Counted from the stretch's first letter, positions 5,262 through 42,052 are shown. The stretch: DNA of 64,000 bases from Stegostoma tigrinum (GCF_030684315.1 NC_081359.1:35040470-35104469); one strand, 5' to 3'. Made by a program: numbers and translations. Notes: generated by a model from the sequence alone, not told the origin.

Positions 5262-5498
5262 GTATAACATAGTGTGTAACTGTAGGAGCACAACAGGCCA
5301 GGCAGCATCAGAGGAGCAGGAACATTGATGTTTTAGGTCAGGGCCCTTCTTAGGAATTGAGAAATCAATTTTCTAAAGAAGGGACCTGACCCAAAACATC
5401 AACTTTCCTGCCCCTCTGATGCTGCCTGGCCTGTTGTGTTCCTCCTGCTCCACACTGTGTTATCTCTGACTCCAGCATTGGCAGTTCTTACTATCTCT
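5262..5498. mobile_element. Palindromic mini-PLE (family A-like): inverted tail-less pLTR + pLTR + tail
   Basis: Two ~95 bp inverted arms meet at ...cccttcttaggaattgagaaatcaattttctaaagaaggg..., with a degenerate hammerhead on each strand. TSD GATTTCCAAATTAG 5248-5261 / GACTTCCAAATTAG 5499-5512. Confidence 0.9.
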
Positions 5499-5731
5499 GA
5501 CTTCCAAATTAGCCAGACTTCAGAGACATGGATCACAGGTGTTATGGATCAGTCCAAAGCCCCTCAAAATATGCTAAAAAGATAATGTAGGTATGACTTT
5601 TTTCTTTTTTTAAAGAAAAGCGCAAGGTGTTGCATTCTAGATGCAATTCAATTGATTAAACTACTCAAAGTAAAGCAAAACAGTTTATTTTTGCACTATA
5701 GTTAAATACAGACAAAATAAAAATGAAAGAA

Positions 5732-5964
5732 CAAAAACAAATTAGCTGGAAACATTCAGCAGGTCGGGCAGCATCTGTGAAAGAAAAAGCAAGAGTTAAA
5801 ATTTCGGGTCCAGTGACCTTTCTTCAGAACAGTTCTGAGGAAGGGTCACTGGACCCGAAACTTTAACTCTATTTGTGCTTTTACAGATGCTGCCCGACCT
5901 GCTGTATGTTTCCAGCTAATTTTTTTTCCCTGATTTACATCATCTGCAGTTCTTTCCATTTTTG
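5732..5964. mobile_element. Palindromic mini-PLE (family B)
   Basis: Inverted arms 5732-5830 and 5832-5930 centred on cagaac-a-gttctg, then a ~34 nt tail. TSD TAAAAATGAAAGAA 5718-5731 / TAGAAATGAAAGAA 5965-5978. Confidence 0.92.
5831..5868 (+). ncRNA. Minimal type I hammerhead ribozyme (PLE family B); mirror copy on the minus strand at ~5793-5830
   Basis: AGTT-CTGAGGA-A-GGGTC-ACTG-GACCC-GAAA-CT-TT-AACT: stem I AGTT/AACT and a perfect 5-bp stem II. Confidence 0.78.
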
Positions 5965-8789
5965 TAGAAATGAAAGAATTGTCTTAACAGTAACTCTATC
6001 AAAATGTTTAACAAAAATAAGAGGTATATTAACTACTACTAACTAACTTTTCCAATATTGTAACATCCCATAAACACACACTTGGCAAAGACAAATTAGT
6101 AAAATTGATTTGTTACACATGCAATTCTGCCAGCAGGTAGAGAACCCCAGATGTTAACCATAGCAGAGAGAGAAATAAAAGGTTTTACATCCAGTTTCAA
6201 GACTCCAGTAACTGCAGAAAGCTATTTACTTTATTGGCTTTGAGTAGGCCGCTCTGTACCTCTGTCTCAACCTTCCTTCATAAAAAAAGGACAAATTGCA
6301 CCGCTTAAAGCTGTAGAATTCTCACACAGGACTAGCAATAAATGGAATCAAATGGGAAGACAGTACTACATGCTTCCCAATTTTAATTCCCCTAGACCTC
6401 AACTCAATTGCAAGAGCAATATTTTGCCCAATTTCAACAGTTTCGCGACAAATGGGTTCAGCTGAAATGGATCTTCATTTTGTTTGAGAAAAAGGGGACA
6501 ATGAATGGTAAACTTCTCCTCAGTTAACCTTATATTATCCATGAATTGTAAAACCATCTCAAAATGCTACTTTCATACAAGATGCACAAATGTTCAGTGA
6601 TTTTTACTTGCTGGAATGATGTTTGTGATAACATGCATTTATAATAGATCTCTAATTTTGAATCTGTCTGCTCACCCAAATTCTTCTCTAACTGGAATTT
6701 GAGTTACATTTTAGTAACGCTGATTAAAGAATTAATTAGATCTTTGAGGTAATTGAAGTACGTTTTGTAAATATGCCTTGTGCTGAGAAGAATCCAAAGG
6801 GAAAATATATATATTGCTTGCTTGGTTATGAATAATTTTTAGGCATCACTGACTGCATAAAACACGTGATAGGGTTTTACTTGTGTTAAAGTGTAGCCTT
6901 TTAGTTTTAGCCTTTTCTAGGATGCCTTCAGGAAATTTAGTTGTCCTGAGAAGTGCAGTGCATCGGTCCACATCATTCAAGTTTTGCCAGCATTGGAGTG
7001 GCTTTATCAGTGATTGCTCTTAAAGATAATTCTTTAACTATGAAAGACAAAATGTTCTATTCACAACTCAATGGTCAGACAGCCAGCAGAGCCTTCCTGC
7101 TTTAACGAGTGACATAGGTTGTTTAAGCTGTAATGCAAATCCCTCAATCAATTCTTCCATTGACTACCAGCAACTTGCCCATGATATTTCAACTAAGCCA
7201 TTGAAAGATTAACCCCCATCTTTGGTTTCCCAATTCAAGTATGCACAGGCTCCAAGTCTGGGTCCGACAACCTTGGGCCAAATATTTACCCAGTGCACAC
7301 TGTAAAACCATACATACAAGTGATACTGTCCCATACTATTATTATGGAGAATGAGCAAGATAAAGTCATTAATGAAACATGTGCTTTGAGAGAACTTGGG
7401 TAAGTGAATATTGACTGGAGAAAACAACATTATAACTGGAATAGAATTGAGAGCTATTTTGGAATCTATGAAGTACTTGTTACTTCACATACAGATTGTC
7501 ATAAATAAATGAACAGGATGAACTTGGCCTCCTCATTAGCTTTAAGTTGTTTCCCATGTCATAGTTACATCAAATTTGATAAGGTGACTCATACTTTCTG
7601 TTTAAGAAAATGTATGGCAGCAAATACTTAATTTCTGCTGAATATAGGGTAAAGTTATGACACATTCCATTTTTAAAATCAATTTTGACAACATTTCACA
7701 CCTTGTCATTTTTACTTTTTGTATGAACATAAAACAAAGGAAGTTAGAAAGCCAATGAAAGGGTAGCAAACTGCTGTCTTCCTGAAAGAAAATGGTGCAG
7801 GTTCCTTTCCCAGGGTAGCACATTTAAAGTTTGCAAAACATTAAATCATTGTTAACTGTGTTGGTTAAAAAGAATGATACATTTTAATTTTTAAAAAAAA
7901 TAGCAGCAAAAATCTTGTTCCTGATCACTACTTTTCATTAATCAACACCGGGCACTTCCTGAAGGATATGCTTTCACAATCAGTTCGCAGTTTTAAATGT
8001 TTCTGCTCCAATTATAGATTAACCTCAAATTATTAGATAAGTTTGGGAAAAAGGACTCCTTTGTATCAATTGCAGTTAAACAGAAACTCTGGAAGGCCTT
8101 TCTGCAAGGTCAACTTTTCTGCCACTGCTTAGAGGGTGGATTTTGTTAGTTGCAGACTAAAATTAGCAGACAGGGTAATTAACTCAGAAAATGAGGTCAA
8201 AGCTAATCCTCCTAATGGACAGGAAGAGCTGCAACTTGCTAAAGCTGCAAATTAACTTGCTTTTACCTCAAATTGCTTAATTTCCAAAACTGTTAGTTAG
8301 CTAGAGTACAAACTTAATGAAGTTGAGCATATCATTTCAGGAAGCACATGGACTGGAATGATAAATTCTTCACCATCTGTTAGCCAATATAATCTTTCAA
8401 AAGTTATTCCTCCAAGATGTCATCATAGGGGTGGATTCTGCAATATAAGAGGAGGCAAGCCAGAATAGTGGCACAAGTCTCAAGAAAGGACACTGGAGCA
8501 ATTGCCCGTAATTTTCCAGGGTCAGCATAATTGAATGATTAGCATGAACTCCCAGCCCAACTTTACCCTTATGTCTGGTTTAAAACTTAAACATCGGGGT
8601 CATTTCTTTTAATCTCCAGTACATTTGTCAATGAGCATTGGTGTCTTAATTTGGCTTAGTGCTAACATTCAGACTACATAGCCTATAGGTCAAGACCTGC
8701 GGTTTACCTTTTGAGCCGAAGGACAAGCTATCTTTCTCCTTTTGAAAATGTTGGCAGAGATCTAAATCCAGAAGTTATGCTCCCAACCT

Positions 8790-8851
8790 TGTGTGTGTGT
8801 GTGTGTGTGTGTGTGTCTCTGTGTGTCTGTGTGTCTGTGTGTGTGTGTGTG
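8790..8851. repeat. (GT)n microsatellite, imperfect
   Basis: Direct reading. Confidence 0.97.
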
Positions 8852-9840
8852 CAAATGTGCCTGCATGCATGTGTGTGTGGAATGTGGGGCAGGGGTGGTG
8901 GTAGTTCATGAAAGGGTAGAGGAGTGTTGGAATAATGGACATGCAGGGGAGATATGTGTTTTAAAACAAATGCCTTTGCCCTTTAGATCTGGTCCCAAAA
9001 TATCTTTGGTTGAGGACAGATCAAATGCCCACTGAAATGTTAAAATTACATGAAAACATATAAACTGATTAAAGTTGTCAATGCTACATTCCAATTCCAG
9101 CATAGATCAAATTTGTGTTATGATCTAGCTAGAGACCAGTTTTTTTTTGTCAATAATATGAGAAATCCAGGTTAAGACCAGAAATTGCTGGAGAAACTTA
9201 AGTCGTGATAATAGACTGTCACTGAACACTTAATGGACACTGAATTAAAACACATGATCAAGATGATGTATCAAAATTATTTATTTCGTTGATCTGGCCT
9301 TGCAACCCTCCTTCAAAAGTTATTCCATTTAGGATTGTCTCAATTATTGTTTGTGTTTTCATTAATTTGGCTTCTTTCCTCAGTTTATGCTTTCTGAGAC
9401 TTTCCAGTACTCGTTCACAAGCATGACCCCAGCTGTTCATCAACAACAAGTTTCACCAAGCTAAAACAGTCCTTGAATTTTTCCCTGAGCTACAATTTTG
9501 TTCATTGGCATCCAGAAATAATAGTGTTCTTTTCAACCCACGTCTGTGATATCTGTACTTAAGCATTAAGGCTGACAGCCTTCCTCCAAGTCCCTTATGG
9601 TGTCTCTTGACACAGAGCCAGTGACCTCCCATTTGCTCAGCTCTACAAGAGTTCTTCTGAACTTCTTCTGATTCCAACACTTAAGCGTCTTAAAATTCTT
9701 AGGACATACTCACAAGTTCTGGGCCCACAGAGCAACCCAACTGCTCTTCTCTCCACACTGAGTCTACCGCGTATAATCTGTACAGTTCAAATATCTTTCC
9801 AGAAGCACAGCTAACCGTAACACTCTGAACGTGAAATTTG

Positions 9841-11552
9841 GAGCTGGAGGAACACAGCAGGCCAGGCAGCATGAAAAGACGCAGGGAAGTTGATGTTTCA
9901 GATCAGGGCCATTCTTTAGAACTTTGGGGCTGGGGAAGGTTGGTGGGATGGTGATAACTGAGTGCAGGTGGGCAGTGATGGGGGTTGGTCAGTGAGGTGG
10001 GAGCAGTGGATAGGTGGGAGAGAAGATGGACAGGTTGTATCAGTCAAAGAGGTGGGGATGAGAGGGAAGGTTGGTCATGGGATGAGGCCAGGGGTAGGGA
10101 GATTTTCAAACTGATAAAGTCCATAATGAGATTATTGGGTTGTAGACTCCCAAGACTGTATATAAGGTGTTGTTCCTCCAGTTTCTGGGTGGTGTCATTG
10201 TGACACTGGAGGAGGCCTAGGAGGAACATGTTGCCCAGGGAGTGGGAGGTGTAGTTGAATTGGTTCGCGGCCAGAAGGTGTTGCCATTTGTCGCAAATAG
10301 AGTGCAGGCGCTCTACAAAACTGACTCTGAGCCTCTGCTTGGTCTCACCAATGTAGCGGGCACCACATCGGGAGCAGTGGATGCAATAGACCATTTTTAT
10401 GGATGTGCAGGTGAACATCTGTCTGATGTGGAAGGTTTGTTTGCTGCTTTGAATGGGGGTGAGGGGGGAGGTGTAGGAGCAGGTGTAGCAGTTCTTACAG
10501 TTGCAAGAAAAGGCGCTGGGGGAGGTGGGACTAGAAGGGAATGCAGAGTGGACGAGGGATTTGTGGAGAAAGCGGTCCCTATGAACGTCACTTAGGGGTG
10601 GGGATGGAAATATATCCTTGGTTGTGGGGTCAGATTGCAGAAATAAGGTTAGTGAGGTGATTGGTGAGGGCAAGGGGGATTCTGTCTTTCTTTTTTTTGG
10701 GGAGAGGAGATGTGAGGGCAGTGGCACAGGAAACACAGGAGATGCAGTTGAGAGCATTTTCGACACCGAAGGGAGGAAATTGCGGTCCTTGAAATAGGAG
10801 GACATCTGGGATGTTCGGGAGTGGAGCGCCCTATTTTGGGAGCAGACACAGTGGAGGTGGAGGATTTGGGAGTAGGAGATAGCATTCTTGCAGGAAGGTA
10901 GGTGAGAGGAGGTATAGCCTAGGTAGTTGTGGGAGTCGGTTGGCTTGTAAAAGATGTCGGTTTTGAGGTGGTCAACAGAGATGACACAGACAGGTCCAGG
11001 AAGGAGAGAGAGGTGTCGGAGATGGTACAGGTGAACTTGACTTTGGGGTGAAAGGTGTTAGTATAGCTGATGAACTGCTCAAGCTCCTCGTGGGAGCATG
11101 TGACAGCATCAATACAATCATCGATGTAGTGGAGGAAGAGGTGGGGGAAAGTGCCAGTGGAACTGCAGAACAGGGACTGTATCATGTATCTGACAAAGAG
11201 GTAGGCATAGATTGTGCCATGCAGGTTCCCACGGCCAACCCTTAGTCTGTAGGAAGTGGGAGGAGTTAAAGGAGAAGTTGTTAAGGTTATAGGATGAGGG
11301 TGTCAGTGGAGGGCGACTGGTTGGATCTGCAGGAGATGAAGAAGCAGAGGGCTTTTATGCCATTCTCATGGAGAATACAAATGTACAGTGATTGGACATC
11401 CATAGTGAAGATGAGGTATTGGGGAAAAGGGAATTGGAAGTCTTGGAGGAGGTGGTGGGCATGGGTGATGTCCACCATGTAAATGGGGAGCTCTTAGACT
11501 AGAGGGAGAAAATAGAGTCAAGGTAAGCAAGCATAAGTTCAGTGAGGCAGGA
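9841..11552 (-). mobile_element. Neptune-type PLE, long tail-less inverted arm (RT, Cys-linker, GIY-YIG, 3' UTR, pLTR)
   Basis: ORFs 11287-11478 (IFTMDVQSLY), 10919-11185 (YIDDCI) and 10044-10805 (CNCKNCYTC; VYCIHCSRCGARYIGET); degenerate hammerhead near 9890-9920. Confidence 0.92.
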
Positions 11553-12281
11553 CCCTACGCCTCCATCTTCAGTTCCATTCAAGGCACCATACAAACTTTA
11601 TACATCAGACAGAGGTTCTCCCGCATGTCCGTCAATGTGGTCTATTGTATCCGCTGCTCCCTATGTGGCCTCCTCTACATCAGTGAGACAAGCAGAGGCT
11701 CAGAGGCCACTTTGTATAGCACCTGCGCTCTGTTCACAACAAACAACAACACCAACCAGTAGTGAATCACTTCAACTTCCCCTCCCACTCCCTGGACGAA
11801 ATGTCCATCCTGGGCCTCCTCCAGTGTCACGATGACACCACCTGGAAACTGGAGGAGCAGTACCTTATATTCCGCCTCGGGAGCCTACAGCCCAATAGCC
11901 TAAATGTGGATTTTACCAGTTTGAAAATCTCCCCAGCCCCAGCCTCATCCCATGTCCAATCCTCCCTCTCATCCCAACCTCCTTGACCTAACACAACCTG
12001 TCCATCTTCTTTCCCACCTATCCGCTTTCCCACCTCACTGAGCAACCTCCACTGTTGCCTACCTGCACTCACCTATCACTATCCCACCTATCTTCTCTAG
12101 CCCTACCCCTCCTCTCTTTATTTATTTCTGAGCTAACTTTCAACACTCCCACCCACTCCATGTCTGAAGAAGGGCCTTGACCTGAACTTTCCTGCTCCTC
12201 TGATCCTGCCTGGCCTACTGTGTACCTCCAGCTCTACACTGTGTTGTCTCTGACTCAAGTGTTAGTGTCTCACTATCTTTC
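11553..12281 (+). mobile_element. Neptune-type PLE, short arm (GIY-YIG, 3' UTR, pLTR, tail) of the same insertion as 9841-11552
   Basis: ORF 11762-11986 (MSILGLLQCHDDTTWKLEEQYLIFRLG); hammerhead remnant from 12164; decayed tail to 12281. Possible CpG-decayed TSD ACGTGAAATTTG 9829-9840 / ACACGAAGTTTG 12282-12293. Confidence 0.88.
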
Positions 12282-13519: not shown

Positions 13520-13930
13520 CTGAGAATCATTTCCTTGTTCCCTTCTCCATATGACTTGCAATCTGAAAAACTCCTTTTGAAACATTGTTGTACCTGTATA
13601 TTGACTTTTTCTGATCCATGTACAAGGACACTCAGATTCCTCTGTGCTGTAGTATTATGTAACGTTCTCCAACTAAATAATGATTTTTCTTCATTTATTC
13701 TTCCTGTCAAAGTGGACAAGGGGCTCACATCTTCCACATTATACTTCATTTGACAAAATCCTTGCACACTAGCATAACCTATTTATGTCCCTTAGCAAAG
13801 TTCTCATGACTTTTCACAACTTACTATGCTACCTATCTTTGGACCAGCAACAAATTAATTTTCCTACCATGAATCCATTTCCCTCACCCATGATAGATTT
13901 AAAATAATGGAGGTCTCAACATCATCTCAG
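13520..13930 (-). mobile_element. CR1 LINE ORF2 fragment, old
   Basis: ORF 13486-13767 (QMKYNVE...AQRNLSVLVHGSEKVNIQVQQ) resembles the CR1 RT C-terminal region at 37263-37469. Confidence 0.7.
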
Positions 13931-16770: not shown

Positions 16771-16869
16771 TGCTTCAACCACTTCTAATAAAATACCAAT
16801 AGAGAGCAATACTAATTCAATCAACCACATTTTTAAGAGTTTCAGTTACAACAATTAAAAGTCTAGTAG

Positions 16870-18097: not shown

Positions 18098-18145
18098 CAG
18101 TAGCTCTAAAGTGAGCTCTAAGCTAACTAGCTCTATTTCTCCCCT

Positions 18146-19737
18146 TTGGTCCAGGAACTCCCCACCTACGTCAGTGACACCACCCACGCCCTCCACCTCC
18201 TCCAGGACTTCCAATTCCCTGGCCCCCAACACCTCATTTTCACCATGGACGTCCAGTCCCTATACACCTGCATTCCGCATGCAGATGGCCTCAAGGCCCT
18301 CCGCTTCTTCCTGTACCGCAGGCCCGACCAGTCCCCCTCCACCGACACCCTCATCCGCCTAGCTGAACTCCTCCTCACCCTCAACAACTTCTCTTTTGAT
18401 TCCTCCCACTTCCTACAGACTAAGGGGGTGGCCATGGGCACCCGCATGGGCCCCAGCTATGCCTGCCTCTTTGTAGGTTACGTGGAACAGTCCCTCTTCC
18501 GCTCCTACACAGGCCCCAAACCCCACCTCTTCCTCCGGTACATTGATGACTGTATCGGCGCCGCCTCTTGCTCCCCAGAGGAGCTCGAACAGTTCATCCA
18601 CTTCACCAACACCTTCCACCCCAACCTTCAGTTCACCTGGGCCATCTCCAGCACATCCCTCACCTTTCTGGACCTCTCAGTCTCCATCTCAGGCAACCAG
18701 CTTGTAACTGATGTCCATTTCAAGCCCACCGACTCCCACAGCTACCTAGAATACACCTCCTCCCACCCACCCTCCTGCAAAAATTCCATCCCCTATTCCC
18801 AATTCCTCGGCCTCCGCCGCATCTGCTCCCACGATAAGACATTCCACTCCCGCACATCCCAGATGTCCAAGTTCTTTAAGGACCTCAACTTTCCCCCCAC
18901 AGTGATCGAGAACGCCCTTGACCGCGTCTCCTGTATTTCCCGCAACACATCCCTCACACCCCGACCCCCCCCCCCCACAACCGCCCAGAGAGGATCCCCC
19001 TCATTCTCACACACCACCCTACCAACCTCCGGATACAACGCATCATCCTCCGACACTTCCGCCATTTACAATCCGACCCCACCACCCAAGACATTTTTCC
19101 ATCCCCACCCCTGTCTGCTTTCCGGAGAGACCACTCTCTCCGTGACTCCCTTGTTCGCTCCACACTGCCCTCCAACCCCACCACACCCGGCACCTTCCCC
19201 TACAACCGCAGGAAATGCTACACTTGCCCCCACACCTCCTCCCTCACCCCTATCCCAGGCCCCAAGATGACATTCCACATTAAGCAGAGGTTCACCTGCA
19301 CATCTGCCAATGTGGTATACTGCATCCACTGTACCCGGTGTGGCTTCCTCTACATTGGGGAAACCAAGCGGAGGCTTGGAGACCGCTTTGCAGAATACCT
19401 CCGCTGAGTTCACAACAAACAACTGCAACTCCCAGCCGCAAACCATTTCCATTCCCCCTCCCATTCTCTAGATGACATGTCCATCATGGGCCTCCTGCAG
19501 TGCCACAATGATGCCACCCGAAGGTTGCAGGAACAGCAACTCATATTCCGCCTGGGAACCCTGCAGCCATATGGTATCAATGTGGACTTCACCAGTTTCA
19601 AAATCTCCCCTTCCCCTACTGCATCCCTAAACCAGCCCAGTTCGTCCCCTCCCCCCACTGCACCACACAACCAGCCCAGCTCTTCCCCCCCACCCACTGC
19701 ATCCCAAAACCAGTCCAACCTGTCTCTGCCTCCCTAA
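18146..19737 (+). pseudogene. PLE reverse transcriptase / GIY-YIG endonuclease polyprotein; 5'-truncated, with one frameshift and one stop
   Basis: RT motifs MDVQSLYT, QTKGVAMGTRMGPSYA and YIDD. Frameshift in the poly-C run 18965-18976, linker FP(Y)NRRKCYTC, VVYCIHCTRCGFLYIGET from 19312, premature TGA 19405-19407, true stop TAA 19735-19737. Confidence 0.93.
19618..19734 (+). repeat. 3 x 39-nt in-frame tandem repeat at the PLE ORF end
   Basis: Encodes TASLNQPSSSPPP / TAPHNQPSSSPPP / TASQNQSNLSLPP. Confidence 0.9.
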
Positions 19738-19959
19738 CCGGTTCTTCCTCTGACCCATCCCTTCCTACCACCCCAAGCCGCACCTCCATCTACCTACTAA
19801 CCTCATCCCACCTCCTTGACCTGTCTGTCTTCCCTGGACTGGCCTATCCCCTCCCTACCTCCCCACCTATACTCTCTCCACCTATCTTCTTTTCTCTCCA
19901 TCTTCCGTCCGCCTCCCCCCCCCTCCCTATTTATTCCAGTTCCCTCTCCCCATCCCCCT

Positions 19960-19991
19960 CTCTGATGAAGGGTCTAGGCCCGAAACGTCAG
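19960..19991 (+). ncRNA. Minimal type I hammerhead ribozyme (PLE family A), identical to 291-322
   Basis: CTGATGA 19962-19968, stem II GGGTCTAGGCCC, GAAA 19982-19985, CGTC 19986-19989. Confidence 0.8.
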
Positions 19992-21044
19992 CTTTTGTGC
20001 TCCTGAGATGCTGCTTGGCCTGCTGTGTTCATCCAGCCTCACATTTTATTATCTTGGAATTCTCCAGCATCTGCAGTTCCCATTATCTCTAGCTCTATTA
20101 CTGTATCTGCACTTCTTATTCTCAGAGCCAAACTTGGAGTACTAATTGAATCAGCAATATGTAGGTATAATTCTTGAATCACATAAGCATCATTGGAAAA
20201 ATACTTAAGCAGGAATCCATTTCACAATTGGTCTCCTGCTCAGTAGAAGCAAGCCAAGCTTCAAAGCTGAGGATTATCTACACAGGACACTGAAGCAGCA
20301 GAGGCACTGTGTTTTTACTGCTGCAACTGGGTAGCCATGGGCCATGGGTAATTATTTTGTGTGTGTGTGAGTAATTTCAGGCATTTCTCCATGAAATTGA
20401 ATCCCAACATGAACTGGCTTGTGTTGAGATTATTGCTCATGGCAAGGTAGGTAAATCTAAGACATTGAGATATTAGAGGGAGCTCTTAATGTTGACCATG
20501 AGCGCTGAAAATAATTCTCTTCCTTCAGCCTGGTATTCCTGATTTGCACAAAACAAACAGAAGTGATGCTTTACTTATAACTCTCCTGCAAATGGAAAGC
20601 ATTGGGACTGTGTGAGCAGCAGAGCCAAAACCTGGAGGTTATAATGTCAGGATCGAGCTATAGGATCCCACTCCCATCCCTTCAAATTTAAAACATACAC
20701 ATCAGGCCATTGATAACGCTCCCAGATAAGGTTAACGGAATCATCAACATTTCCAAGTCAAGAGTTGAAGACACTATTGATGCCGCTATTTGAATATAAC
20801 TGGAAGAAAGGGGGAGGCCTGAGTTGATGACTCTCCAGTACATGGCAGGAACACTTGACTCCCAACACTAATTGCTAAAGACTTGTTCTTCAAACATTCC
20901 TTGTTCATCAAGGAGAGCAGAAATGCACCTGCACAACTGGACACCCCTCCTCTCTGCACACATCCCACCCCCCGCCCCGGTCTCATTCATCAGCCCTTCC
21001 CTTTCATTGTAATTCCTTGTTTCAAAACGCTAGTAAAAAGGTAA

Positions 21045-21542: not shown

Positions 21543-21544
<2 letters not shown>

Positions 21545-23271: not shown

Positions 23272-25586
23272 CCCTCAGTGACTGCCTGTAGCTCAGACAC
23301 ACCCCACGTGGATTCCAACTGAAGTTTCATCCCTCATGTTTTAAATCCTCCACGACCACAGATATCTCGGTGATGTTCAACATTTCATGGACAGCTACTC
23401 TCACTGTATCCTGAAATCCATGGTCAGTGCCATGCAGTGCCACATGCAGACTCTCGACCTTTCTCTCCAACAGCAACAGCATTGCATCAGCACTGGCTCA
23501 GGGCTGCTCCACTCCACAGTTCCACTTCATCCTCCAGTTGCGCTAACAAGAAAAATTATTTTTTCCTTTCAGGCATTAAGGCCCAAAAGATGGAAAATCA
23601 AAAAAGATCCTTCATGGCCTTCTAGAACTTTCCTCCATTCCCTTCCCTGTGACTCCATTCCCTCCTCCAGCCCCAACTCCTGTTAGGCATTCACTATCCC
23701 TCCTAACTTTCCACTCTCTGATGTTGAGCACTCTGTACTGAGCAAAGGCCTCAGCTTTATCCCTCTATGTTCCTACCTTAACAAATTTTGGACATAACAT
23801 GATGCCAAACTCTTCTTCCACTGACTTTGCGTCCATGCTCATTTCTTTGGACAAAAATCCTCGTCCTGTCCAACAGACCATTTCAACCAGTTCCAACACT
23901 CCCTCCACCCGGGCCCCTCCCTCTGGCCTTTTACCTGCATTCAATCTGTTCATTGAGAACTGTCAACGTGATGTTAGTCGCCACAAGTTCTCTGCACGTC
24001 CTTCAACAAATCTAACCTATGTCCCTCCAAACTGACTGTACTCTTGTGCACTGAGATCTTCCCCTAACTTTGTTATTAAACCACCCAATAAAGGTGGTGC
24101 TGTTGTAGTCTCGTGTACTGACCTCAACCTTGCAGAGGCTGAGTGCCAACTCTCAGCTACTTCTTCCTACCTTCCCCTGGACCATACTCCACCATGAAAG
24201 ATCAGGCCATTGTATCTACTACAGTAGCCAACCTCATTTCATCTGGTGACCTCCCCCACTCTGCTTCCAAGCTGATAGTCCCCCAGACCTGTACAGCTAT
24301 CTTCTACCTCCTCCCAAAAATCCACAAACAGAACAGTCTGGGCAGACCCAGCCTGCTCCTGGCCCACAGAACTCATCTCTTCCTACCTTGACTCACTGCT
24401 CCACTCCCTGCTCACGTACATCCGTGATCCCTCAGATGCTTTATGCCTGTTTCAAAGCTTCCAGTTTGCCAGTTCCAGCCAGCTTCTCTTTACCATGAAT
24501 TTACAATCCCTTTACATGTCCATTCTCCACCAGGATGATCTTTGGGCTTTCTGCTTCTTCCTGGCGCAAAGACCTGAAACATCTCCACCCACCACCACCT
24601 CTTCCGTTTGGCCAAGCTTGTCCTTACCCTCAACAAGTTCTCTTTTAACTTCATTTTCTTCAGGTAAGAGGGCCATGGGTGCCCAAATGGGCACTAGTTA
24701 TGCCTGTCTCTTCACAGGGTAAGTGGAACATTCCTTGTTCCAGTCCGATTCCGGCCCCCACCCACAAGTCATTATCTGATACAATAATGGTCTAATTGGG
24801 TGCTGCTTCCCTCTCTCATCGAGAATTGGAAAATTTCATCAATTTCGCCTCCAATTTCCACCCTGCCCTCACTTTCACATGGTTTATTTCTGACTCCTCC
24901 TTTCCCTTCCTTGACATTTTTGTTTCCACTTCCGGGGATAGACTGGCCACTAATATCCATTATAAACCCATTGACTCCCACATCTACTGAAACTATACAT
25001 CCTCACAATCTACTTCCTGTTAAGATTTCATCCCATTCTCTCAGTTTCTCCGTCTCCATCGCATATGTTCAGATGAGGCCACCTTCGACAAGGGAGCTTC
25101 CGAAATGTCCACTTTCTTCCTCAACTGAGTATTCCCCACCTCTGTTATTGACAAGGCCCTCAACCAGGTCTGACCCATCTCCTGCACTTCCGCCCTCACC
25201 ACTTCTCTTCCTACCCGTGACAACGATAGGGTTCTGCATGTTCTTATCTACCATCCCAGCAGCAACCACATCCAGAAGATCATCCAACACCATTTACACC
25301 ACCTCCAGCAAGATGCAAGATGCCACCATGCGACACATATTCCCCTCCCTTTCCTTGTTCACATTCCACAGGGACCATTCCCTCTGGGACACCCTGTTCC
25401 ATACTTCCTTCACCCCCAACACCTTCCACAATCCCCACAGCCCAACGGCACCTTCCTCTGTAACTGAGAAAGGTGCAACACCTACCTATTTACCTCCACC
25501 CTCCCCAGTATCCAAGGACCCAAACATACCTTCCAGGTGAAGCAACACTTCATCTGCCTCTCCCAGAATCTGGTCTATTGTATTCA
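23272..25586 (+). mobile_element. Older Neptune-type PLE: N-terminal region, RT and linker, broken at the start of GIY-YIG
   Basis: Homologous to 31009-32868. Motifs FYLLPKIHK, MNLQSLY and AMGAQMGTSYACLF; ends at LVYCIH; many stops. Confidence 0.9.
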
Positions 25587-26095
25587 CTTCATCAGAAAAG
25601 GGAGAGGGGAAGAACATTCTGAAATAAATAGGGAGAGAGGGGGAGGAGGATCGAAGATGGATAGGGGAGAAGATAGGTGGAGCGGAGACAGACAAGTTAA
25701 AGAGGCGGGGATGGAGCCAGTAGAGGTGAATGTCGGTGGGGAGGTAGGGAGAGGATAGGTCAGCCCGGGGAGGATGGACAGGTCAAGGGAGCGGGATGAG
25801 GATAGTAGGTTGGAAATAGGGGTGCAACTTGAGGTGGGAGGAGGGGATAGGTGAGAGGAAGAACAGGTTAGGGAGGCGGGAACGAGCTGGGCTGGCTTTG
25901 GGAGGCAGTAGGGGAAGGGGAGATTCACCCGAAGGTTGCAGAAACAGCAACTCAATTCCACTTGGGAATCCTGCAGCCCAATGGTATCAATGTGGATTTC
26001 ACAAGTTGTAGGTTCAGGTGCTGCCCCTCTAATTTACGGGTGTGTTATTATGTCACTGGAGGAGGCCCAAGATAGACATGTTAACCAGGGAGTGG
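25587..26095. mobile_element. Scrambled PLE fragments: minus 25587-25925 (family A 3' UTR), plus ~25926-26005, minus ~26006-26095 (endonuclease C-terminus)
   Basis: The minus piece starts at cttcatcag (reverse complement of CTGATGAAG). The plus piece cacccgaaggttgcagaaacagcaactc matches ~19516-19595. Confidence 0.8.
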
Positions 26096-27932
26096 ATGAC
26101 ATTCCCCAACCCCGCACTGCCGGTTTACACCTCCTTCCCAAAATCCACAAACCCGACTGTCTGAGCCGACCCATTGTCTCTGCCTGCTCCTGCCCAATAA
26201 ACTTACCTCTACTTACCATGACTCTGTTTTATTACCCCTGGTCCAGGACTCCCCACCGATATCTGGGACACCAATCACGCCCTCTATCTCCTTCAAGACT
26301 TTCAATTTTCTTCACTGTGGCCATGCGGATGGTCCAAAAGCCCTCTATTTCTTCCCTTCCCATAGGCCCAACCAGTTCCCTTCTACCGACACCCTTATAC
26401 GCTCAACCAAACTCGTCCTTACCCTTAACAACTTCTCCTACAACTCCTCCCACTTCCTAAAGACTAAGGAGTTGGCCATGGGCACCCGTATGGGCCCAGG
26501 CTATGCCTGCCTCTTCATAGGATATGTGGAACAGCCCCTCTTCCGCTGTTACACTGGCAGTATCCCCTACCTCTTCCTCGATTACTTTGATAACAGTACC
26601 GGCATTGTCTCGCACGCCCACAAGGAGCTTGAACACTACTTGAACTTTACTAACATGTTTCACCTCAAATTCAGCTGGACTCATCTCTGATACGTCCCTC
26701 TCCTTTCTGGACCTCGCTGTCTCCATCTCTGGTGAGCGCCTCGAAACTGACATCTATTCAAGTCCTCTGACTCACACAGCTACCTGGACTACACCTCCTC
26801 TCACCCACCCTCCTACAAGAATGTTATCTTATACTCCCAATTCCTCCGCCTCCACTACATCTGCTCCCAAGATGGGGCATTCCACTCCCGAACATCCCAG
26901 GTGTCCTTCTATTTCAAGGACTGTAACTTGCCCTTCTCTAGTGATTGAAAACGCCCTCAACCCCATCTCTTGTGTTTCCCACACCTTTGCCCTCACATCC
27001 CCTCTCTCCAATGAAAAAAGGGCAGAATCCACTTTGTCCTTACTTATCACCCCACCAACCTCTGCATCTAATGTATTGTTCTCTGCCATTTCCACCACCT
27101 GCAATCCAACCCCACAACCAACGGTATATGCCCCTTCCCACTCCTATCTGCCTTTCATAGGTAGCGCTCTCTCTGCAACCCCGTCATCTGCTCCACACTC
27201 CCCACTAACCCCAATGCACCTGGCACCATTCCCTGCAAATGCAAGAAGTGCTACACCTGCCCCTACATCTCGCCCCTCGCCTCCATCCAACAAACCTTCC
27301 CCATTAGACAAGGGTTCACCTGCACATCCATGAACTTGGCCAATACATCCATTGCTCCTAATGTTTCCTCCATTACATCAGTGAGACTGAACGGAGGCTC
27401 GGAGATTTCTTTGCAGAGCGCCTGCATTCTTTTCACAACAAACAACACCTTACAGTCGGGAACCATTTCTACTCCCCCTCCCACTCCCTGTGCAACATGT
27501 CCATCCTGGGCCTCACATTGACACCACCTGGAAACTGGAGGAGCAGTGCCTCAAATTCCGCATTGGGAGCCTACAGCCCAATGGCCTAAACGTGGATTTT
27601 ACCAGTTTGAAAATCTCCCCAAGCCCCTGCCTCATTCCATGACCAACCCTCCCTCTCATTCCTGCCTCGTTGACCTGACACAACCTGGTCTTCTTCTCCC
27701 CCACCTATCTGCCTCATCCTTCCCACTGTCCAAACCCCACCCCAGCCTACTTGCACTCACCTATCACCATCCCACCTATCTTTCTGAGCCCCACCCCTCC
27801 TCTTTCTGTTTATTTCTGAGCTCCTTTCTCCTCCACATTTCCTACTCCTTTGATGCTGCCTGGCCTGCTGTGTTTCTCCAGCTCCACACAATGTTATCTC
27901 TGACACAAGTACCTGCAGTTCTTGCTGTCTCT
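26096..27932 (+). mobile_element. Neptune-type PLE: RT to tail, with the hammerhead deleted
   Basis: LHLLPKIHKPD..RPIVSACSCP, AMGTRMGPGYACLF and CKCKKCYTC; pLTR and tail end ...cttgctgtctct. Deletion at 27840/27841. Confidence 0.9.
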
Positions 27933-31381: not shown

Positions 31382-32869
31382 AGTGGTTTCCAATTGAAGT
31401 TTTATCCCTTTTGTTTTGAATCCTCCCAGAATTACAGATATCTCCGTAATGTTCAAAATTCCACAGACAGCTGCTCTCACCACATCCTGCGATTCACACT
31501 CAGTGTCATGTGGCAAAACATGCACACTCTCAACCTCTCAGTCCAATCGCAATACAGCACACTGGATCAGGGTTGCATCACTTTGCAGTTCCACTTCATC
31601 CTCCGGCTCATTCATCCTGCTAACAAGAAAGTTTTTCTTTACCTTTCAGCCATCAAGGCCCACAAGATGTAACAATTCTAAGCTACCCATGGCCCTCTAG
31701 AACCTTCCTTTCCTCCCTCTGACTCCATTCCCTCCCCCAGCCCCACCTCCTGTCAGGAATTCACCAACCCTCCAAACCTCTTTCTCTCCGATGCTGAATA
31801 TTCTATACTCAGCAAAGGCCTCAGCTTTATCCCTGTGCGACACACCTTAACGAATTATGGGCATGACATGACATTGAACTCTTCCCCCACCGTCTTTGCC
31901 TCCATGCCCATTTCTTTGAACAGGAGTCCTTTCCCACAGATGCCATTCGCCCAGTTCCAACACTGTCCCTCCAGCTGGGCCCCTCCCTTTGGCCTTTTAC
32001 TTGCACTCAATCTGTTCTTTGAGAACTGTCAACATGATATTGTTCATCTCAATTTCTCTGCAACTCCAATCTATCTCCTTCTGAACTGACTGCACTCCAT
32101 TCACTTAGATCTAACTCTGGCTTTGTTATTAAGCCTGCTGATAAAGGTAGTGTTGTGGTAGACTGGCATACTGACCTCGACATTGCTGAGGCTCAGCACC
32201 AGTTCTCAGATGCTTCCTCTTATCTTGCCCTGGGCCATGACCCCACCATGAAACATTAGGTCATTGTATCAACTACAGTAACAGGCCTCATTTCATTTGG
32301 TGACCTCTCCCTCACTGCCTCCAAACTGATAGCCACTTAGCCCTGCACAGCTTGCTTCTACCTTCTTCCAACAATCTACAAACAGGACTGCCCGTGTAGA
32401 CCCATTGTTTCAGCCTGCTTCTACTCCACCAAACTTATCTCTTCCTACCTGGACTTCTCTTTTAACTCCTCTCATTTACTTCAGGTGAAAGGAGTGGCCA
32501 TGGGTTCCCGCATGGGACCCAGTTATGCCTGTCTCTTCAAGGAGTACATGGATCATCCCTTGGTCCAGTCCTATTCTGGCTCCCATCTACCAAATCTTTC
32601 TCTGATATATCATTGGTGCTGTTTCCCTCTCTTGCCTGAAATTGGAAAAATTCATCCATTCTGCCTCCAATTTCCACCATGTCCTCACTTTCACCTGATC
32701 TATCTCTGACTCCTCCCTTTCCTTCCTCGACATTTCTGTTTCTATTGCTGCGGATAGACCAGCCATTAATATCCACTCTAAACTCACTGACTCCCACAGC
32801 TAGCTGGACTATATATCCTTGCACCCTCCTTCCTGTAAAGGCTCCATCCCATTCTTTCAGTTCCTCGGT

Positions 32870-32909
32870 GAGTTCTGAGGAAGGGTCACCGGACCCAAAA
32901 TGTTAACTC
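32870..32909 (+). ncRNA. Hammerhead ribozyme remnant (family B), with GAAA mutated to AAAA
   Basis: GAGTT-CTGAGGA-A-GGGTC-ACCG-GACCC-AAAA-TG-TT-AACTC, with 5-bp stems I and II. Confidence 0.7.
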
Positions 32910-33629
32910 TGATTTTTGTTTTCACAAATGCTGCCAGACCTGTTGACACTTTCCAGCAACTTCTGTTTTTGTCCCTGGCAAAGTGGCCTTGGCTATCTGC
33001 TTTATGTATGCACCTCAGGATTTTATAAACCTCTATAAGGTTAACCCTCAGTCTCAGATGCTCCAGTTGAAAAAAGCCCCAGTCTACTCAATCTCTCCCT
33101 ATAACTCAAAGCCTCCAACTGCAGCAAAATCCTTGTTCTGAGTTTTTTTCAAGTTCAACAACATCTTTTCTCTAGCACAAGGCCAGAATTGAATGCTCTA
33201 TTCTAAAAGTGTTATGTAATCACAGAATTACACATAACATTTGACATTGTGTTCTGAGGTTTGCATGCATTGGTTTGCCTACTGCAAAGAACTGACAGGA
33301 AATGTTTCATATAATCCAACAGTCATTAGAATGCTTGGCTCGCAAACCTAGTGTTACACTAATGTTAAACCTCACATACTGCATTACTGTTTTGGTAGTT
33401 AGAATGTCTTTTTGGCATAATGGAAGCATCCAGTTGGTGGAGAATGCTCTCATTTTTCTATTGCCATGTTGCAGTATTAAATGGTTGGATGCTTTTGGTA
33501 TTCAAATGCTTGAGATCGTTGATGTTTGTGGGACAATTTGAGGCATAGCGTGGGGACATGTCAAATGTAAAATGTGGTTATGGAGAAAGGGTCTCTGTCC
33601 ATTAGTATTTCAGGCAGAGATTTGGAAAG

Positions 33630-33810
33630 ATGTCAGTAGAGAAGTTAACATTTAAAAGGCATTTGAATGCATACCTGAATAGGAAGGGTTTAGAGGGATA
33701 AAGGCCAAATGCTTTCAAATGAGACTAAATTAATTTAGGATATCTGGTCGGTATGGATGGGTTAGACCAAAGGGTTGGTTTCTGTGCCATACATCCCAAT
33801 GGCTCTGTGC
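33630..33810 (+). mobile_element. CR1 LINE 3' end fragment
   Basis: acatttaaaaggcattt...aggaagggtttagagggata, similar to 41925-42050. Confidence 0.75.
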
Positions 33811-35154: not shown

Positions 35155-35570
35155 TCAAATAAGAACAGGAGAAGACAGTTCAGCACCTTTGGCCTGCTCT
35201 GCGATTCAGTAAGACCGTCCCTTAGATATACTCAAGGACTCTGCCCGTTATGGTCTATGAAAAAGGGTTCCAAAAATCCTCAGATAAAATAAAATCTTCC
35301 TCATCTCAGTCTTAAATTAGCACCCCTTTATTCTGAGAATATGCCTTCTGGTCCTAGACTCTGCCATGAGGGGAAACATCCTCTCAACATTTACTCTGTC
35401 AGGCCCCTTAAGAATCCTATATATTTCAGTGAGATCACCTCACATTCTTCCAAATTTTAAAGAGTACAGACCCAACATTTTCAACCTTTGTTCATGAGGC
35501 AATTTGTCCACAGTGGCTATCATTCCAGTGGACTTTCTCTGTATTGCCTCCACTGAAAAAAGTCTTTCCT
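35155..35570 (-). mobile_element. CR1 LINE 3' end fragment
   Basis: ORF 35440-35631 (HEQRLKMLGLYSLKFGRM) and an aagaacaggag terminal segment. Confidence 0.75.
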
Positions 35571-35939
35571 TAAATTCCAACTCAAAACTTGTGAAAAAAA
35601 TCAAATTTAAATAAAAGTTAGTTATTGGCATCTTAGATTTTAAAATCCAAACATTTTAAAGGGCCATAGTGCTAAGTTTAGCTGACATGAAAGTGAGTAT
35701 GCTGTGGAATTATTTGTCTCATTGAAGTGTGTCATGCTACTGAAGAGGTTGGGAAGTACAGAGGACTGGCACCATTCCTTTATAAGCTAGTTGAAGAGGT
35801 TGTTTAGTAGTCTGTGGTGGAGAGTGGGCCACAGAAAAGCCTCCGTAGGGAGACTGATTTATTTCATAGTAAGGTGCAGTTTATTATGTCTCAGTATCTG
35901 TGACCAGGTTAGATGAACTCTTAAGCACACACTGCAGAG

Positions 35940-38142: not shown

Positions 38143-38558
38143 TATTCAACTGTTACCAACAAGAGTAGAGAAGTCACATGTATTTCCATCAGAAGACTGT
38201 ACAAAACTCCAAATTATTTTCCAATTTGATATCAGACTGGGTAGAGCTCAGATTCATTTAAACATTAACACTTTCTAACCTTTTATACGACAACCCTATG
38301 TTTTCTCTTCTACACCATCAGTAGCCAAGTGTTCATTGTTTCAGATTGAGTCTTTTGAACTCTGCCCTGAAATCTTTCACTCTTTCATCTTTAAGATGAT
38401 CTTTAAAATTTTACCTTTTTGGTTTTAGTAACCTGTCCTAATATTTCCTTCTGTGGATTAGAATTATTTATGGTCTAACTACATATAATGTTTATGTTTT
38501 GTCACCACAACCAATTTATGTACGAAAAACTCTTTACCCAGACACTGTTGTTAGTGAA

Positions 38559-38679
38559 GGATAGTAGGAACTGCAGAAGCTGGAGAATCTGAGATAGCAA
38601 GGTGTAGAGCTGGATGAACACAGCTGGCCAAGCAGCTCATAGGAGCAGGAAAGCTGACGTTTCGGGCCTAGACCCTTTC
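38559..38679 (-). mobile_element. Single-arm mini-PLE (family A): hammerhead stem II to tail only
   Basis: Reverse complement reads AAGGGTCTAGGCCCGAAACGTCAGC...tail. TSD GTTAGTGAA at 38550-38558 and 38682-38690 (11 bp allowing one CpG change). Confidence 0.9.
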
Positions 38680-38850
38680 TCGTTAGTGAAATGGACAAAG
38701 ATGAACATTTCGGTTTTCAATTCAATTCAATAGTATTAACACAGTATTCTCTATTAAAACATGATGGTTGCAGTTTCTAATTTCCATAATATTCACTCTC
38801 TATCTTACTCTCTTTTTGAGAAAAGATAGTATCCACAATGATCCATATTT

Positions 38851-38980
38851 GACACAAAAACAAAGTTGCTGGAAAAGCTCAGCAGGCCTGGCAGCATCTG
38901 TGGTGGAGAAAACAGGCTTAACATTTTGGGTCTGGTGACGCTTCCTCAGAAGGGTCACCAGACTCAATACGTTAACTCTC
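38851..38980. mobile_element. Asymmetric palindromic mini-PLE (family B)
   Basis: Minus arm 38851-38949 ends at cttcctcag (reverse complement of CTGAGGAAG) and is fused to a plus arm aagggtcaccagactcaatacgttaactct. No TSD found. Confidence 0.82.
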
Positions 38981-39519
38981 TTAACGTATCTTCTACCTTG
39001 ATTCTTGTTGTGAGCTTTGGCTGATGAGGTAACTTCTAGCAGAGTGTTTTTATACCCCACTTCCGCAGACTTTCTTGATTATTTCATGGCATTTGGTCAA
39101 TGGGGTGATTGATGAGCAGTGTTCAAAGCATTGGATGGGGTTGTGCCAACGGCATTCACTGCTGCATTGCTGGGGTTGGGGGTGTAAAGTGCACATTCTC
39201 AGGCACTGGCTGGAAGTCAAGGTGCCAGAAAGTCTGATCGATACTTCTCTAATATATAACCTTCAAGCTGGTTGTAACTGGTTTCTCCTGAACTTTTTTT
39301 AACTTTGTGACCTCTTTGAGCTTTTCTTTTTTTACATTGTTCTCTGTAATTGAAAGCAGTTAGATGTTGTTTATCTTAGATTGGCTATTTTTCTCTTCAG
39401 CCCAATTTCTCCGGCTATGGGCCAATTTCGAATGTCCACTTAGGCTGTGGTCATTTGACCACAAAATAAGATGAGGTCCTCCTCATACGAGTATCTCACC
39501 TTGTTTCGCATCTGTTACC

Positions 39520-40480
39520 TTTGCTTTAAAATCCTTGTACTCTACAATCCACTCAATTACCATATAAAATTTCTTCCCAAACTGCTATCACTTCCCTCAC
39601 TATCTGAAACATTTGACCAACGTTTTTAGATATATTCCTTCATTCATTCATCATTAAGAGGCTATTCTCAAGTTCATTCCTTCCTGATGAATGATAGCCA
39701 AAGATACATCTACCATCACTTCCCTTCCCACACAGTTACATCTGGAGTTCTGTATGAATCTACCTATTGACATCCTCTGATTTCATATCTCAATGTTGCA
39801 ACTTAACGACATCATCTGAAAACACTTTAATTCTACAAATATATTTCTACAAATCTACCTCACCAGCCCCTGTTTTGAATGCTTACTTGTCCTGAGATTT
39901 CGTTTGAATGTCACATAATCATTTTAATTGGAAGACATTTCAATTTACCAAGACTGCCACATTGCCTCCGAAGCTGCTGCAAACTCTGTTCACCAGCCTC
40001 CAACTCCATTCCTCTTCCTAATCATCATCTGAGGTTTACCCAGATCATTTACACTCCCGTTTGACCCTGAAATGAAATGATTTGACCATATATTCTCTCT
40101 ATCATTTATCATCTAAATTCATCTCCTTAACATTGTCTGGCTCCATCCCTGCCTCTGTTAACAGCAATTCCTTCATTATTCCAGTCTACCCCTGGCTTAT
40201 TTTCATAAACCCAAGATTATCAACAGCTCTGATGCCTGTATCCTTACTCAGCCACCATGTTTACTGATCCCTCTAAGTTGCAAAGGGATACAGCAATACA
40301 GCAATTAGGATTGAGCTGGCCCAGAAGTGAACTGGGTGCTACTGTAACCTGAAGGTCTCACACAGCCGGAAAAGCAGAAGACTTTGACAGTTACCTGGGT
40401 GCCCATTGGCCTAAATTGCTGTCTAATTCTGAATCGATTCAATTTTTAAAATTCTCATCCTTGTTTACAAAATACTCTTG
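39520..40480 (+). mobile_element. Old L2-like LINE remnant
   Basis: Pyrimidine-rich degenerate RT-like blocks (acagttacatctggagttc, gacatcatctgaaaacac, ctacctcacc, tttaaaattctcatccttgtttacaaa). Confidence 0.45.
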
Positions 40481-40594
40481 GAATGCTAATCAAGTTTTTA
40501 TTTTGAACTGTTTAACTACATTAAATTTCGGTTTATTGTTGCTGTTTTGCTTTTTAGTCATAATTAAATAAATGAAAAATTTAACAAAAGTACT

Positions 40595-42052
40595 GATTTG
40601 GGATTGTCAACAAGGCTTTGCTTTGTGGGAAATCGCGTGTCACTTACTCAACTGAGTTTTTACGAAATGGCAAAGAAGATAGATGAAGGTGCAGTGATAA
40701 ATGTTGTCGATGTAGACATTCGATGCGGCTCTGCATGGTAAACTGATTAGTAAGGTTAGATTATGTAGGATCCAGGAGGAACTTGCGAATTGGATGCAAG
40801 ATTTGCTTCAAGTTAGAAGACAGTGAGTTACTTTTCAAACTGGAGGCCTGTGACCAGCAGTGTGCCACAATGGTCGATGCTGGGTCCACTGCTTTTCGTT
40901 ACTTATATAAGTGATTTGGATGTGAATATCAGAGATATGGTTATTAGTTTTGCAGATGACACTGAAATAAGCTGTGTAGTGGACAGCAAAGAAGATTATC
41001 TTGGAGTTCAATGGGACCTTGATCTGATGGGCCAATGGGTTGAAGAGCATCAGGTGGAGTTAAATTTAGATAAATGTGAAGTGTTGCATTTTGGTAAGGC
41101 AAGCCAGGGCAGGGCTTTGACAGTTAATGGTACGAACCTGGGAGTGTTACTGAATAAACAGACCTAGGGGTGCAGATGCATAGTTCCTTGAAACTGGAGT
41201 TGCAGGTAAACAGGAAGGTGAAGAAGGTGAGAATACAAGGTGTAGAGCTGGATGAACACAGCAGGCCCAGTAGCATCAGAGGAGCAGGAAAGCTGAAGTT
41301 TCGGGTGTCGACCCTTCAGAAAGGTCCAGGCCCAAAAAGTCAGCTTTCTTGCTCCTCTGATGCTGCTTGGCCTGCTGTGTCCATCCAGCTCTATACCTTG
41401 TTATCTCAGATTCTCCAGCATTGGCAGTTCCTACTACCTCAAGGTGAAGAAGGTGTTTTGCATGTTTGCCTTCATTGGCCAGTGCATTGAGTGTAGGAGT
41501 TAGGATGACATGTCACAGCTGTAGAGGATATTGGTGAAGCCTCTTTTAGAATATTGTATACAGTTCTGGTTGCCCTTCTATAGGAAAGATGTTGTTAAAC
41601 TTGAGAGGGTGCTGAAGAGATTTAAAAGGATGCAGCCAATACTGGCGAGCGGTGGGATTTGAGTTACAGGGAGAGGCTGAATAGACTGGGGCTTTTCTTG
41701 AAGCCTGAGGATTGGCCTTACAGCAGTTTATAAAATCATGAAAGGCATGGATAGGGTGGATACCCAAGCTCTTTTTTATAGGGTGGTGGAGTCCAAAACT
41801 AGAGGGCATAGGTTTATGGTGGGAAGGGAAAGATTTTAAAAAGACCTAAGAGTTAATGTTTCCACACATGTGGTTGTGAATATATGGAATTAGCTGCCTA
41901 AGGAAGGAGTGAAGGCAGGTAAAATTACAACATTTAAAAGGCATCAGCATTGGTTGATGAAGAGGAAGGGCCTAGAGGGAAATGGGACTAGGTCAGATTG
42001 GGATGTCTGGTCCAAAGGATTTGTTTCCAAACTGTATAACTCTATGACTCTA
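40595..42052 (+). mobile_element. CR1 LINE RT to 3' end, interrupted by a mini-PLE
   Basis: WRPVTSSVPQWSMLGPLLF, SFADDT and KCEVLHFG; terminal ctctatgactcta microrepeat. Confidence 0.92.
41230..41440. mobile_element. Palindromic mini-PLE (family A)
   Basis: Perfect 15-bp TSD AAGGTGAAGAAGGTG at 41215-41229 and 41441-41455. Inverted arms meet at cccttc-ag-aaagg (~41317); the 34-nt tail (41407-41440) is on the right arm only. Confidence 0.94.

Follow-up and report, generated by a model that had tools for sequence, protein, structure and literature searches.

Four short inverted elements lie in the window analysed here, a 64,000-nucleotide stretch of DNA from Stegostoma tigrinum, and were named E1 (5262-5498), E2 (5732-5964), E3 (38851-38980) and E4 (41230-41440). 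They derive from Penelope-like elements (PLEs), and an earlier note on this DNA had described them as palindromes with a hammerhead ribozyme on both strands. Such palindromes are real and very common; they represent an insertion architecture that is already known, in its minimal variant, and not a new self-replicating RNA class. They are probably dead-end, minimum-length insertions of a Neptune-type PLE, formed by two-strand priming, run-off at the 5' end of the RNA and head-to-head joining. The two DNA strands would be nicked by the element's protein at a spacing of about 14-15 bp, and each nicked strand would be extended on sense RNA, the two internal start sites of reverse transcription lying about 35 nt apart. 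Both complementary DNAs (cDNAs) would probably run off the predicted capped 5' end of the RNA, 4 nt before the hammerhead, and would then be end-joined head to head at the centre; the template could be one sense RNA copied twice, or two RNAs. The hammerhead would be present in the palindromes only because it is located between the RNA start and the start sites of reverse transcription. Observed here in support of this scheme are an architecture shared with long copies, one tail per pair, target-site duplications (TSDs) of variable length, diverse junctions, a pile-up of 5' ends, a TATA-like box at a regular spacing and an extra G in the youngest family, termed A0. From these we infer that transcription probably starts at -4, that the G may derive from copying of the cap and that end joining presumably closes the centre.

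The architecture was characterized in 137 ten-kb stretches (1.37 Mb) at round positions on large contigs, evenly chosen rather than formally random. This sample holds 458 arms, 198 of which form 99 head-to-head pairs, and 95 of these pairs are short. The density of short palindromes, which are ~230 bases long, is 69 per Mb (bootstrap 55-85), corresponding to ~220,000 copies if the sample is typical. Neighbouring arms at most 40 bp apart are arranged head to head in 98 cases, tail to tail in 3 and directly in 2, and the pairing is therefore not due to chance. With E2 as the query, the 40 best of 4,273 candidates were all palindromes of like build, and a search for exact centre patterns returned 769 loci of family B and 5,841 of family A0, compared to 0 for the controls.

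A strict asymmetry runs through these pairs. One tail is present in 93 of the 99 sampled pairs, none in 6 and two in 0, although simple arithmetic on 93 tails and 198 arms predicts ~22 two-tail pairs if arms chose their ends independently. Positions along the arms, which were placed against natural long copies, are numbered from the C of the CUGA box of the hammerhead. On this scale, the arms of each of the three subfamilies (A0, A1 and B) have 3' ends that fall into two groups, one at about +92 to +95 and one at about +128 to +135. TSDs of 9-18 bp, with a mode of 14-15, flank 55 of 84 pairs and 0 of 84 shifted controls; no target motif emerged from them, and their AT content is 65% against a background of 58%.

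The same build recurs in long copies of the element. Twenty copies with a long open reading frame (ORF) were fetched, and 19 were usable once L239, whose stretch missed the reverse transcriptase (RT) region, had been dropped. An inverted truncated copy abuts 14 of these 19, and all 13 long-copy pairs that were readable to either end have exactly one tail (by eye); in L230, the 5' end of a full-length unit carries a mini-arm. Since long copies thus show the same head-to-head, one-tail pair, the mini-palindromes represent the short end of the element's normal product.

The parent is represented in the window by a 5'-truncated copy of family A0 on the plus strand (18136-20089), which retains remnants of both an RT and a GIY-YIG domain, the 3' untranslated region (UTR), the tail and a hammerhead (19962-19989, plus strand). 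Its 3' UTR contains a TATA-like box 30 nt before the predicted +1. When its RT was used as a query, the best 150 of 98,139 candidates scored had 97-98% identity. The long A0 copies possess a single ORF of ~1,100 amino acids (a frame of 1112), which opens just 3' of the tail and is ordered RT to GIY-YIG (RVT_1, E 2e-5; GIY-YIG, E 0.003; both under the Pfam cut-off). Its translation contains a CX4CxxC linker, and a CX2-5CxxC linker between RT and endonuclease is a feature of Neptune and Nematis elements (PMC8557442). The ORF layout and the linker fit the Neptune type, an assignment made from these sequence features, of which Nematis shares the linker. Altogether, the single RT and GIY-YIG ORF of family A0, the linker, the hammerhead-bearing pseudo long terminal repeats (pLTRs) in tandem or inverted orientation and the tail at one end only are those of endonuclease-containing (EN+) PLEs. 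The ORF was seen for family A0; the parents of A1 and B are known through their upstream flank alone. The parent-type copy in the window is bordered by a duplication of ~11 bp (18125-18135 and 20088-20098) and lacks an inverted partner, as judged by eye. In the ORFs of L227, L229 and L230, a low-complexity DGTPPT tandem repeat lies at residues of about 255-330, between the N-terminal part and the RT; its copy number varies with the frame kept, which is reminiscent of the in-frame inserts in Adineta Penelopes.

Three of the four window elements illustrate this architecture in full. E1 comprises a minus-strand short arm of family A1 (5262-5356), which ends at the first start site of reverse transcription (about +91 from CUGA), a centre filler (5357-5370) and a plus-strand tail arm (5371-5498; about -3 to +130; tail about 5464-5498); the core is decayed in both arms, and the inverted arms (5264-5356 and 5371-5463) are 86% identical. 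The two arms of E2 both belong to family B: a minus-strand short arm (5732-5830; -3 to +95), in which the closing pair of stem II is broken, and a plus-strand tail arm (5831-5964; tail about 5928-5964), which begins at the predicted +1 A and contains the sole hammerhead core to have survived in E1-E4 (5835-5864, plus strand). Its inverted arms (5734-5830 and 5832-5927) share ~88% identity. E4 consists of a minus-strand short arm of family A1 (41230-41318), whose CUGAnGA box is incomplete at the junction, and a plus-strand tail arm (41319-41440; +4 to +127; tail about 41407-41440), with inverted arms (41219-41317 and 41319-41417) of 83% identity. In each of the four elements one arm ends near +91 to +96, and in E1, E2 and E4, but not E3, the second ends near +127 to +132, giving a tail of ~35 nt on one side. 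The 5' ends of the arms meet at the centre, at about -5 to +5, with the left arm of E1 aligned to -10 within the filler.

The TSDs of these elements measure 14 bp with 1 mismatch in E1 (5248-5261 and 5499-5512), 14 bp with 1 mismatch in E2 (5718-5731 and 5965-5978) and 15 bp with none in E4 (41215-41229 and 41441-41455), exactly the 14-15 bp with 0-1 mismatch that had been described for three elements. For E4, the duplication is further backed by the host repeat, of which 14 collinear empty sites were sampled; the 15 bp overlap exactly in 7 of the 8 printed, so that E4 is a real insertion with a true target duplication and no assembly artefact. The remaining element does not fit the description of four palindromes: E3 pairs a full minus-strand short arm of family B (38851-38951; -2 to about +98; core decayed) with a plus-strand stub of ~32 nt (38949-38980; +5 to about +37) that lacks both the CUGA box and a tail, and no TSD was found within 30 bp of it. 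The single-sided tail of E1, E2 and E4, the descent of the elements from two families (A and B) and the four centres, all unlike, were borne out. The variants that the arms of E2 were said to share are indeed common to both, but they are rare rather than strictly private: the three occur in 0, 1 and 0 of 77 other sampled family B arms, CCCGACC being found in both arms at the sampled stretch L009 and GCTAAT in one arm at L023.

How far the two arms reach in the 5' direction bears directly on the mechanism. In a rival scheme, which we consider improbable, the second arm is copied from the first when a single cDNA (or an antisense template) loops back to prime its own extension. Self-priming of this kind was proposed for head-to-head pLTRs (PMC3846280), and it would agree with partner arms being more alike than family members (0.908 vs 0.841 for A; 0.817 vs 0.750 for B), with rare variants being common to both arms more often than in shuffled pairs (6 vs 0.6, 10 vs 3.0 and 9 vs 2.9), and with those of the 89 comparable pairs in which the tail arm reaches further 5' by at least 6 nt (27) or the two are level (23). 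In the other 39 pairs, however, the tail-less arm has 5' sequence that is missing from the tail arm, which contradicts fold-back for about four pairs in ten: as the tail-less arm has extra 5' sequence and the tail arm extra 3' sequence, neither can be a copy of the other. Deletion of the centre at a later time is unlikely to rescue the scheme, since 13 of 16 young pairs are already asymmetric (the tail-less arm reaching at least 6 nt further 5' in 8 of the 16) and the 5' ends of 187 paired and 154 solo arms follow the same distribution (Kolmogorov-Smirnov p 0.22). Furthermore, fold-back leaves unexplained why the second arm stops at the +92 start site. Two-strand priming has a precedent in the Poseidon element, whose protein cuts and extends both strands in vitro from two reverse-transcription start sites that bracket the tail, and for which hammerhead cleavage is not needed and the RNA is uncleaved (PMC11167929). 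The 5'-asymmetry counts fit this result better than they do the self-priming proposal of PMC3846280.

The junctions between the arms show that such pairs formed many times over. Ninety-five short palindromes fall into 94 junction classes, with an overlap at the centre in 35, a flush join in 5 and filler in 55, and many fillers copy nearby arm sequence (by eye). No fixed difference separates tail arms from short arms (smallest p 0.009 over 291 columns). These varied junctions and the lack of fixed arm differences argue against a self-propagating miniature inverted-repeat transposable element (MITE), and the earlier view of PLE-derived elements generated repeatedly and independently, rather than one MITE family, agrees with them. 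Breakage of the centre after insertion was considered as the cause of the junction variety and is unsupported, given the asymmetry of the young pairs. That whole palindromes are re-mobilised as a non-autonomous, MITE-like or retrozyme-like family is very improbable, for all that the copy number is very high and a few simple centres recur, such as the shortest spacer in 6 of 50 listed B loci (by eye). The commonest asymmetric centre of family B faces either way relative to the tail (5 vs 4), and the similarity between loci that share a centre (0.847) does not exceed that between other loci (0.854); the centre was readable at 39 of 41 distinct loci. The closest other match to E2, among the best 40 of the candidates noted above, has 82% identity. 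Nor do the TSDs have the fixed short length of a terminal inverted repeat element or MITE, and in place of homogeneous single-master copies with symmetric termini there are asymmetric tails and diverse centres. Among the sampled palindromes, the re-mobilisable non-autonomous element that had been envisaged left no sign.

The idea that both arms of an element come from one source is usually correct. In family A, 67 of 70 pairs have arms of the same subfamily and, as described above, partners exceed the family average in identity and share rare variants above the shuffled level, the B value of the latter test equalling the null maximum. A better match usually exists at another locus (0.955 vs 0.908 for the partner), and the partner ranks first for just 18 of the 114 arms in A and 10 of the 52 in B. 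About 90% of rare variants are not common to both arms, and because only 8-12% are shared, the arms must mostly decay independently. Judged from these comparisons, the arms would usually stem from one source lineage and then diverge on their own.

The 5' ends themselves are concentrated at the hammerhead. The per-base chance of a 5' end at -8 to 0, relative to -100 to -31, is 0.039 vs 0.002 in A0, 0.106 vs 0.004 in A1 and 0.172 vs 0.014 in B, a 12- to 29-fold increase in the three subfamilies, with the B value resting on 11 arms beyond -8. Among long copies that were not selected for it, a TATA-like box at a distance of 29-33 nt before -4 is present in 47 of 51 from A0, 10 of 15 from A1 and 2 of 6 from B, and A1 and B possess an initiator-like sequence with its A at -4. 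Copying of an mRNA cap gives an extra G. For A0 arms whose end lies at -4, the preceding base is G in 72 cases, T in 18 and A in 10 (the first 100 of 1,059 matches; by eye), where 35% G is expected (p 6e-14) and the parent has C. At an internal control position, +45, the counts are 22 G, 61 T and 17 A (the first 100 of 116; by eye); as the T count there is probably inflated by mutation, G was compared with A (Fisher p 0.0003). The G follows varied fillers and unrelated genomic flank in 30 fetched A0 cases, and the 14 with non-PLE flank have 9 G, 3 T and 2 A (by eye).

The pile-up might also mark a point at which reverse transcription stops on an RNA structure, a bound protein or a processed end, with two-strand priming retained and no transcription start at -4; we regard this as unlikely. 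The stop does fall on the 5' strand of helix I of the hammerhead, the site is crossed by long read-through copies (of 115 solo A0 arms, 46 extend beyond -250), the extra G is unproven in B and A1, and the transcription start is read from DNA. Against a stop speak the TATA-like box at about -30, an initiator-like sequence where the ends of A1 and B pile up and, in A0, a G that is added at -4 and absent at +45. The hammerhead cuts about 28 nt downstream of CUGA, and cleavage was rejected as the source of the 5' ends because the pile-up lies about 30 nt upstream of the cut site. A splice acceptor was likewise rejected, since splicing would remove the AG that the arms keep and no constant upstream exon is next to them. 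Four contig sets from other organisms, whose RNA nature was guessed, contain similar fragments of pLTR size, with loose ends at 19961 and near 20054; they cannot show starts or expression and were not used.

Several observations weigh against two-strand priming with run-off at a transcription start. Over half of the paired arms terminate downstream of the CUGA box, so early stops or trimming are frequent as well, and only 29 of 144 solo short arms have a detectable TSD. The extra G is clear in one family only: the base before -4 is G in 30, A in 60 and T in 10 B arms (the first 100 of 139) and G in 9, A in 27 and T in 5 A1 arms (41 of 41), although the A in these counts may derive from the partner arm. 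With all sampled arms pooled, G precedes 25 of 100 ends at -5 to -2 and 24 of 149 internal ends, and two of the fetched A0 cases have a G that doubles as the final base of the TSD. The start at -4 is likely, but its placement derives from DNA only. In Drosophila virilis, transcription of Penelope was mapped to a start about 120 nt upstream of the hammerhead, and the internal promoter is TATA-less (PMC2377424, PMC4209133), so the promoter layout is not general. Lastly, the Poseidon work in vitro concerns another PLE clade.

The hammerheads of the palindromes are for the most part decayed. By a minimal-core test (CUGAnGA, stem II of at least 3 pairs, GAAA, UH), one of the eight window arms passes, the plus-strand arm of E2, and its helix III pair is broken; in E4 the full CUGAnGA box is missing from both arms. 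Cores are absent from 67 of the 95 sampled palindromes, 26 have one and 2 have one on each strand, so the proposed hammerhead on both strands is not a property of these elements, and a dual-ribozyme class is not supported. An Rfam scan of E1-E4 returned no hammerhead match at E up to 1; sub-threshold matches to microRNA-precursor hairpins were obtained on three of the four. The prediction that a transcript would form a stable hairpin does stand, E2 having a predicted fold of -143.8 kcal/mol (z -21). In that hairpin the sense core would pair with its own complement, and unpairing it would cost a predicted 22 kcal/mol. Minimal PLE hammerheads show no cleavage as monomers and little as dimers, two sense copies being needed (PMC4209133). 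With at most one sense minimal hammerhead per transcript, paired to its own complement, the Avsunviroidae-like role that had been suggested finds no footing. Avsunviroidae carry the hammerhead in both polarities, and the likeness to their hammerhead arm is geometric only.

That the hairpins are kept for a function of their RNA, as dual ribozymes, sources of small interfering RNA or ADAR substrates, is very improbable in view of the decay of the cores and of arms that mostly drift apart independently. Selection for editing or small-RNA output was not seen, incidental output being possible. The stability of the predicted hairpin is in its favour, and at ~70 per Mb many copies would be expected inside transcribed introns.

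The components of this architecture are in print. Published accounts of opposite-strand hammerhead pairs (PMC4209133) and of inverted pLTRs that are joined head to head and bear a tail and a TSD (PMC3846280, PMC8557442) contradict the supposition that the architecture was undescribed, and an inverted truncated copy, a tail and a TSD are standard PLE features (PMC8557442, PMC8969392, PMC3846280). In the open literature, no paper was found that treats minimal PLE palindromes as a class of their own, whether in cartilaginous fish or in other organisms, and none that reports a 5' pile-up at the hammerhead; subscription papers, figures, supplements, Repbase or Dfam may contain such descriptions. 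The insertion unit of EN+ PLEs, with a 30-40 bp tail (Arkhipova et al. 2013, PMC3846280; Craig et al. 2021, PMC8557442), agrees in its 5'-truncated copies arranged head to head, in a tail confined to one end, in the TSD and in the hammerhead within the pLTR. Here, by contrast, both copies measure ~100-135 nt, the minimal form accounts for 198 of the 458 sampled arms and the 5' ends are concentrated at one site. Schistosoma PLE remnants have dual minimal type I hammerheads on opposite strands, 100-700 bp apart (Cervera and De la Pena 2014, PMC4209133), whereas the cores here abut (0-30 bp) and are mostly incomplete; the consulted text of that paper gives neither boundaries nor a mechanism. In vitro, the Poseidon element PAc from Anolis (Frangieh et al. 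2024, PMC11167929) likewise has both strands extended, two internal start sites that define the tail and uncleaved RNA for a template. PAc belongs to another clade, its ORF starting in stem II while the ORF here opens after the tail, and palindromic products are not described for it in the consulted text. Animal non-LTR retrozymes are also non-coding, PLE-derived and equipped with a type I hammerhead, but form head-to-tail tandem arrays of same-sense hammerheads (bioRxiv 2026.07.22.740005). The palindromes are head to head, with at most one sense core, and are not built of head-to-tail units that each hold a complete sense hammerhead.

Twin priming by L1, which is reportedly due to Ostertag and Kazazian in 2001, gives an insertion whose two parts mostly copy different stretches of the RNA. 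In the elements described here, both arms copy the same stretch, and the product is a palindrome. The processes are otherwise similar, in that L1 twin priming also involves both target strands primed on RNA, joined cDNAs, an inverted 5' part and a TSD (bioRxiv 2024.12.14.628481).

The PLE transposition cycle is still called undefined (PMC8557442), and the palindromes probably record how this poorly understood element copies itself. The strict rule of one tail per pair lends support, on the scale of a genome, to the priming of two strands at two sites that was seen in vitro, and speaks against the view that head-to-head pLTRs generally arise by fold-back self-priming, while the pile-up at -4 amounts to an exact prediction of a transcription start. 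More tentatively, two-strand priming may be obligatory for PLEs, with each strand assigned its own fixed start site and with the 5' pLTR of the element's own capped mRNA as the commonest template. The ~200,000 mini-palindromes would then be a nucleotide-resolution fossil map of the transcription start, and each run-off copy would lose the TATA-like promoter, hence only tandem read-through copies could be active. In practical terms, hairpins that contain hammerhead remnants and occur at ~70 per Mb will give false leads in searches for MITEs, microRNAs and viroid-like RNAs in such genomes.

Two sampled stretches, L058 (6765-8450) and L065 (4982-6200), contain short head-to-tail arrays of A0 3' ends with intact hammerheads, at periods of about 440 and 270-300 bp, and each array stands head to head with a second arm. 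These arrays are retrozyme-like, and their same-sense hammerheads could form a dimer.

A large part of the window consists of PLEs. Families A and B are also present as solo pLTR arms, at 1-387, 9834-9921, 12163-12278, 27838-27932, 32872-32977 and 38560-38677, several of which stop at either start site of reverse transcription and begin close to the hammerhead. Older fragments of PLE bodies, with 65-73% identity to the young family, occupy 10090-11951, 24090-27620, 31760-32866 and 45065-46143. The end of a third, divergent PLE family is found at 46500-46730, where a hammerhead remnant follows an initiator-like A at -4 and a TATA-like sequence lies about 31 nt before that A (both by eye).

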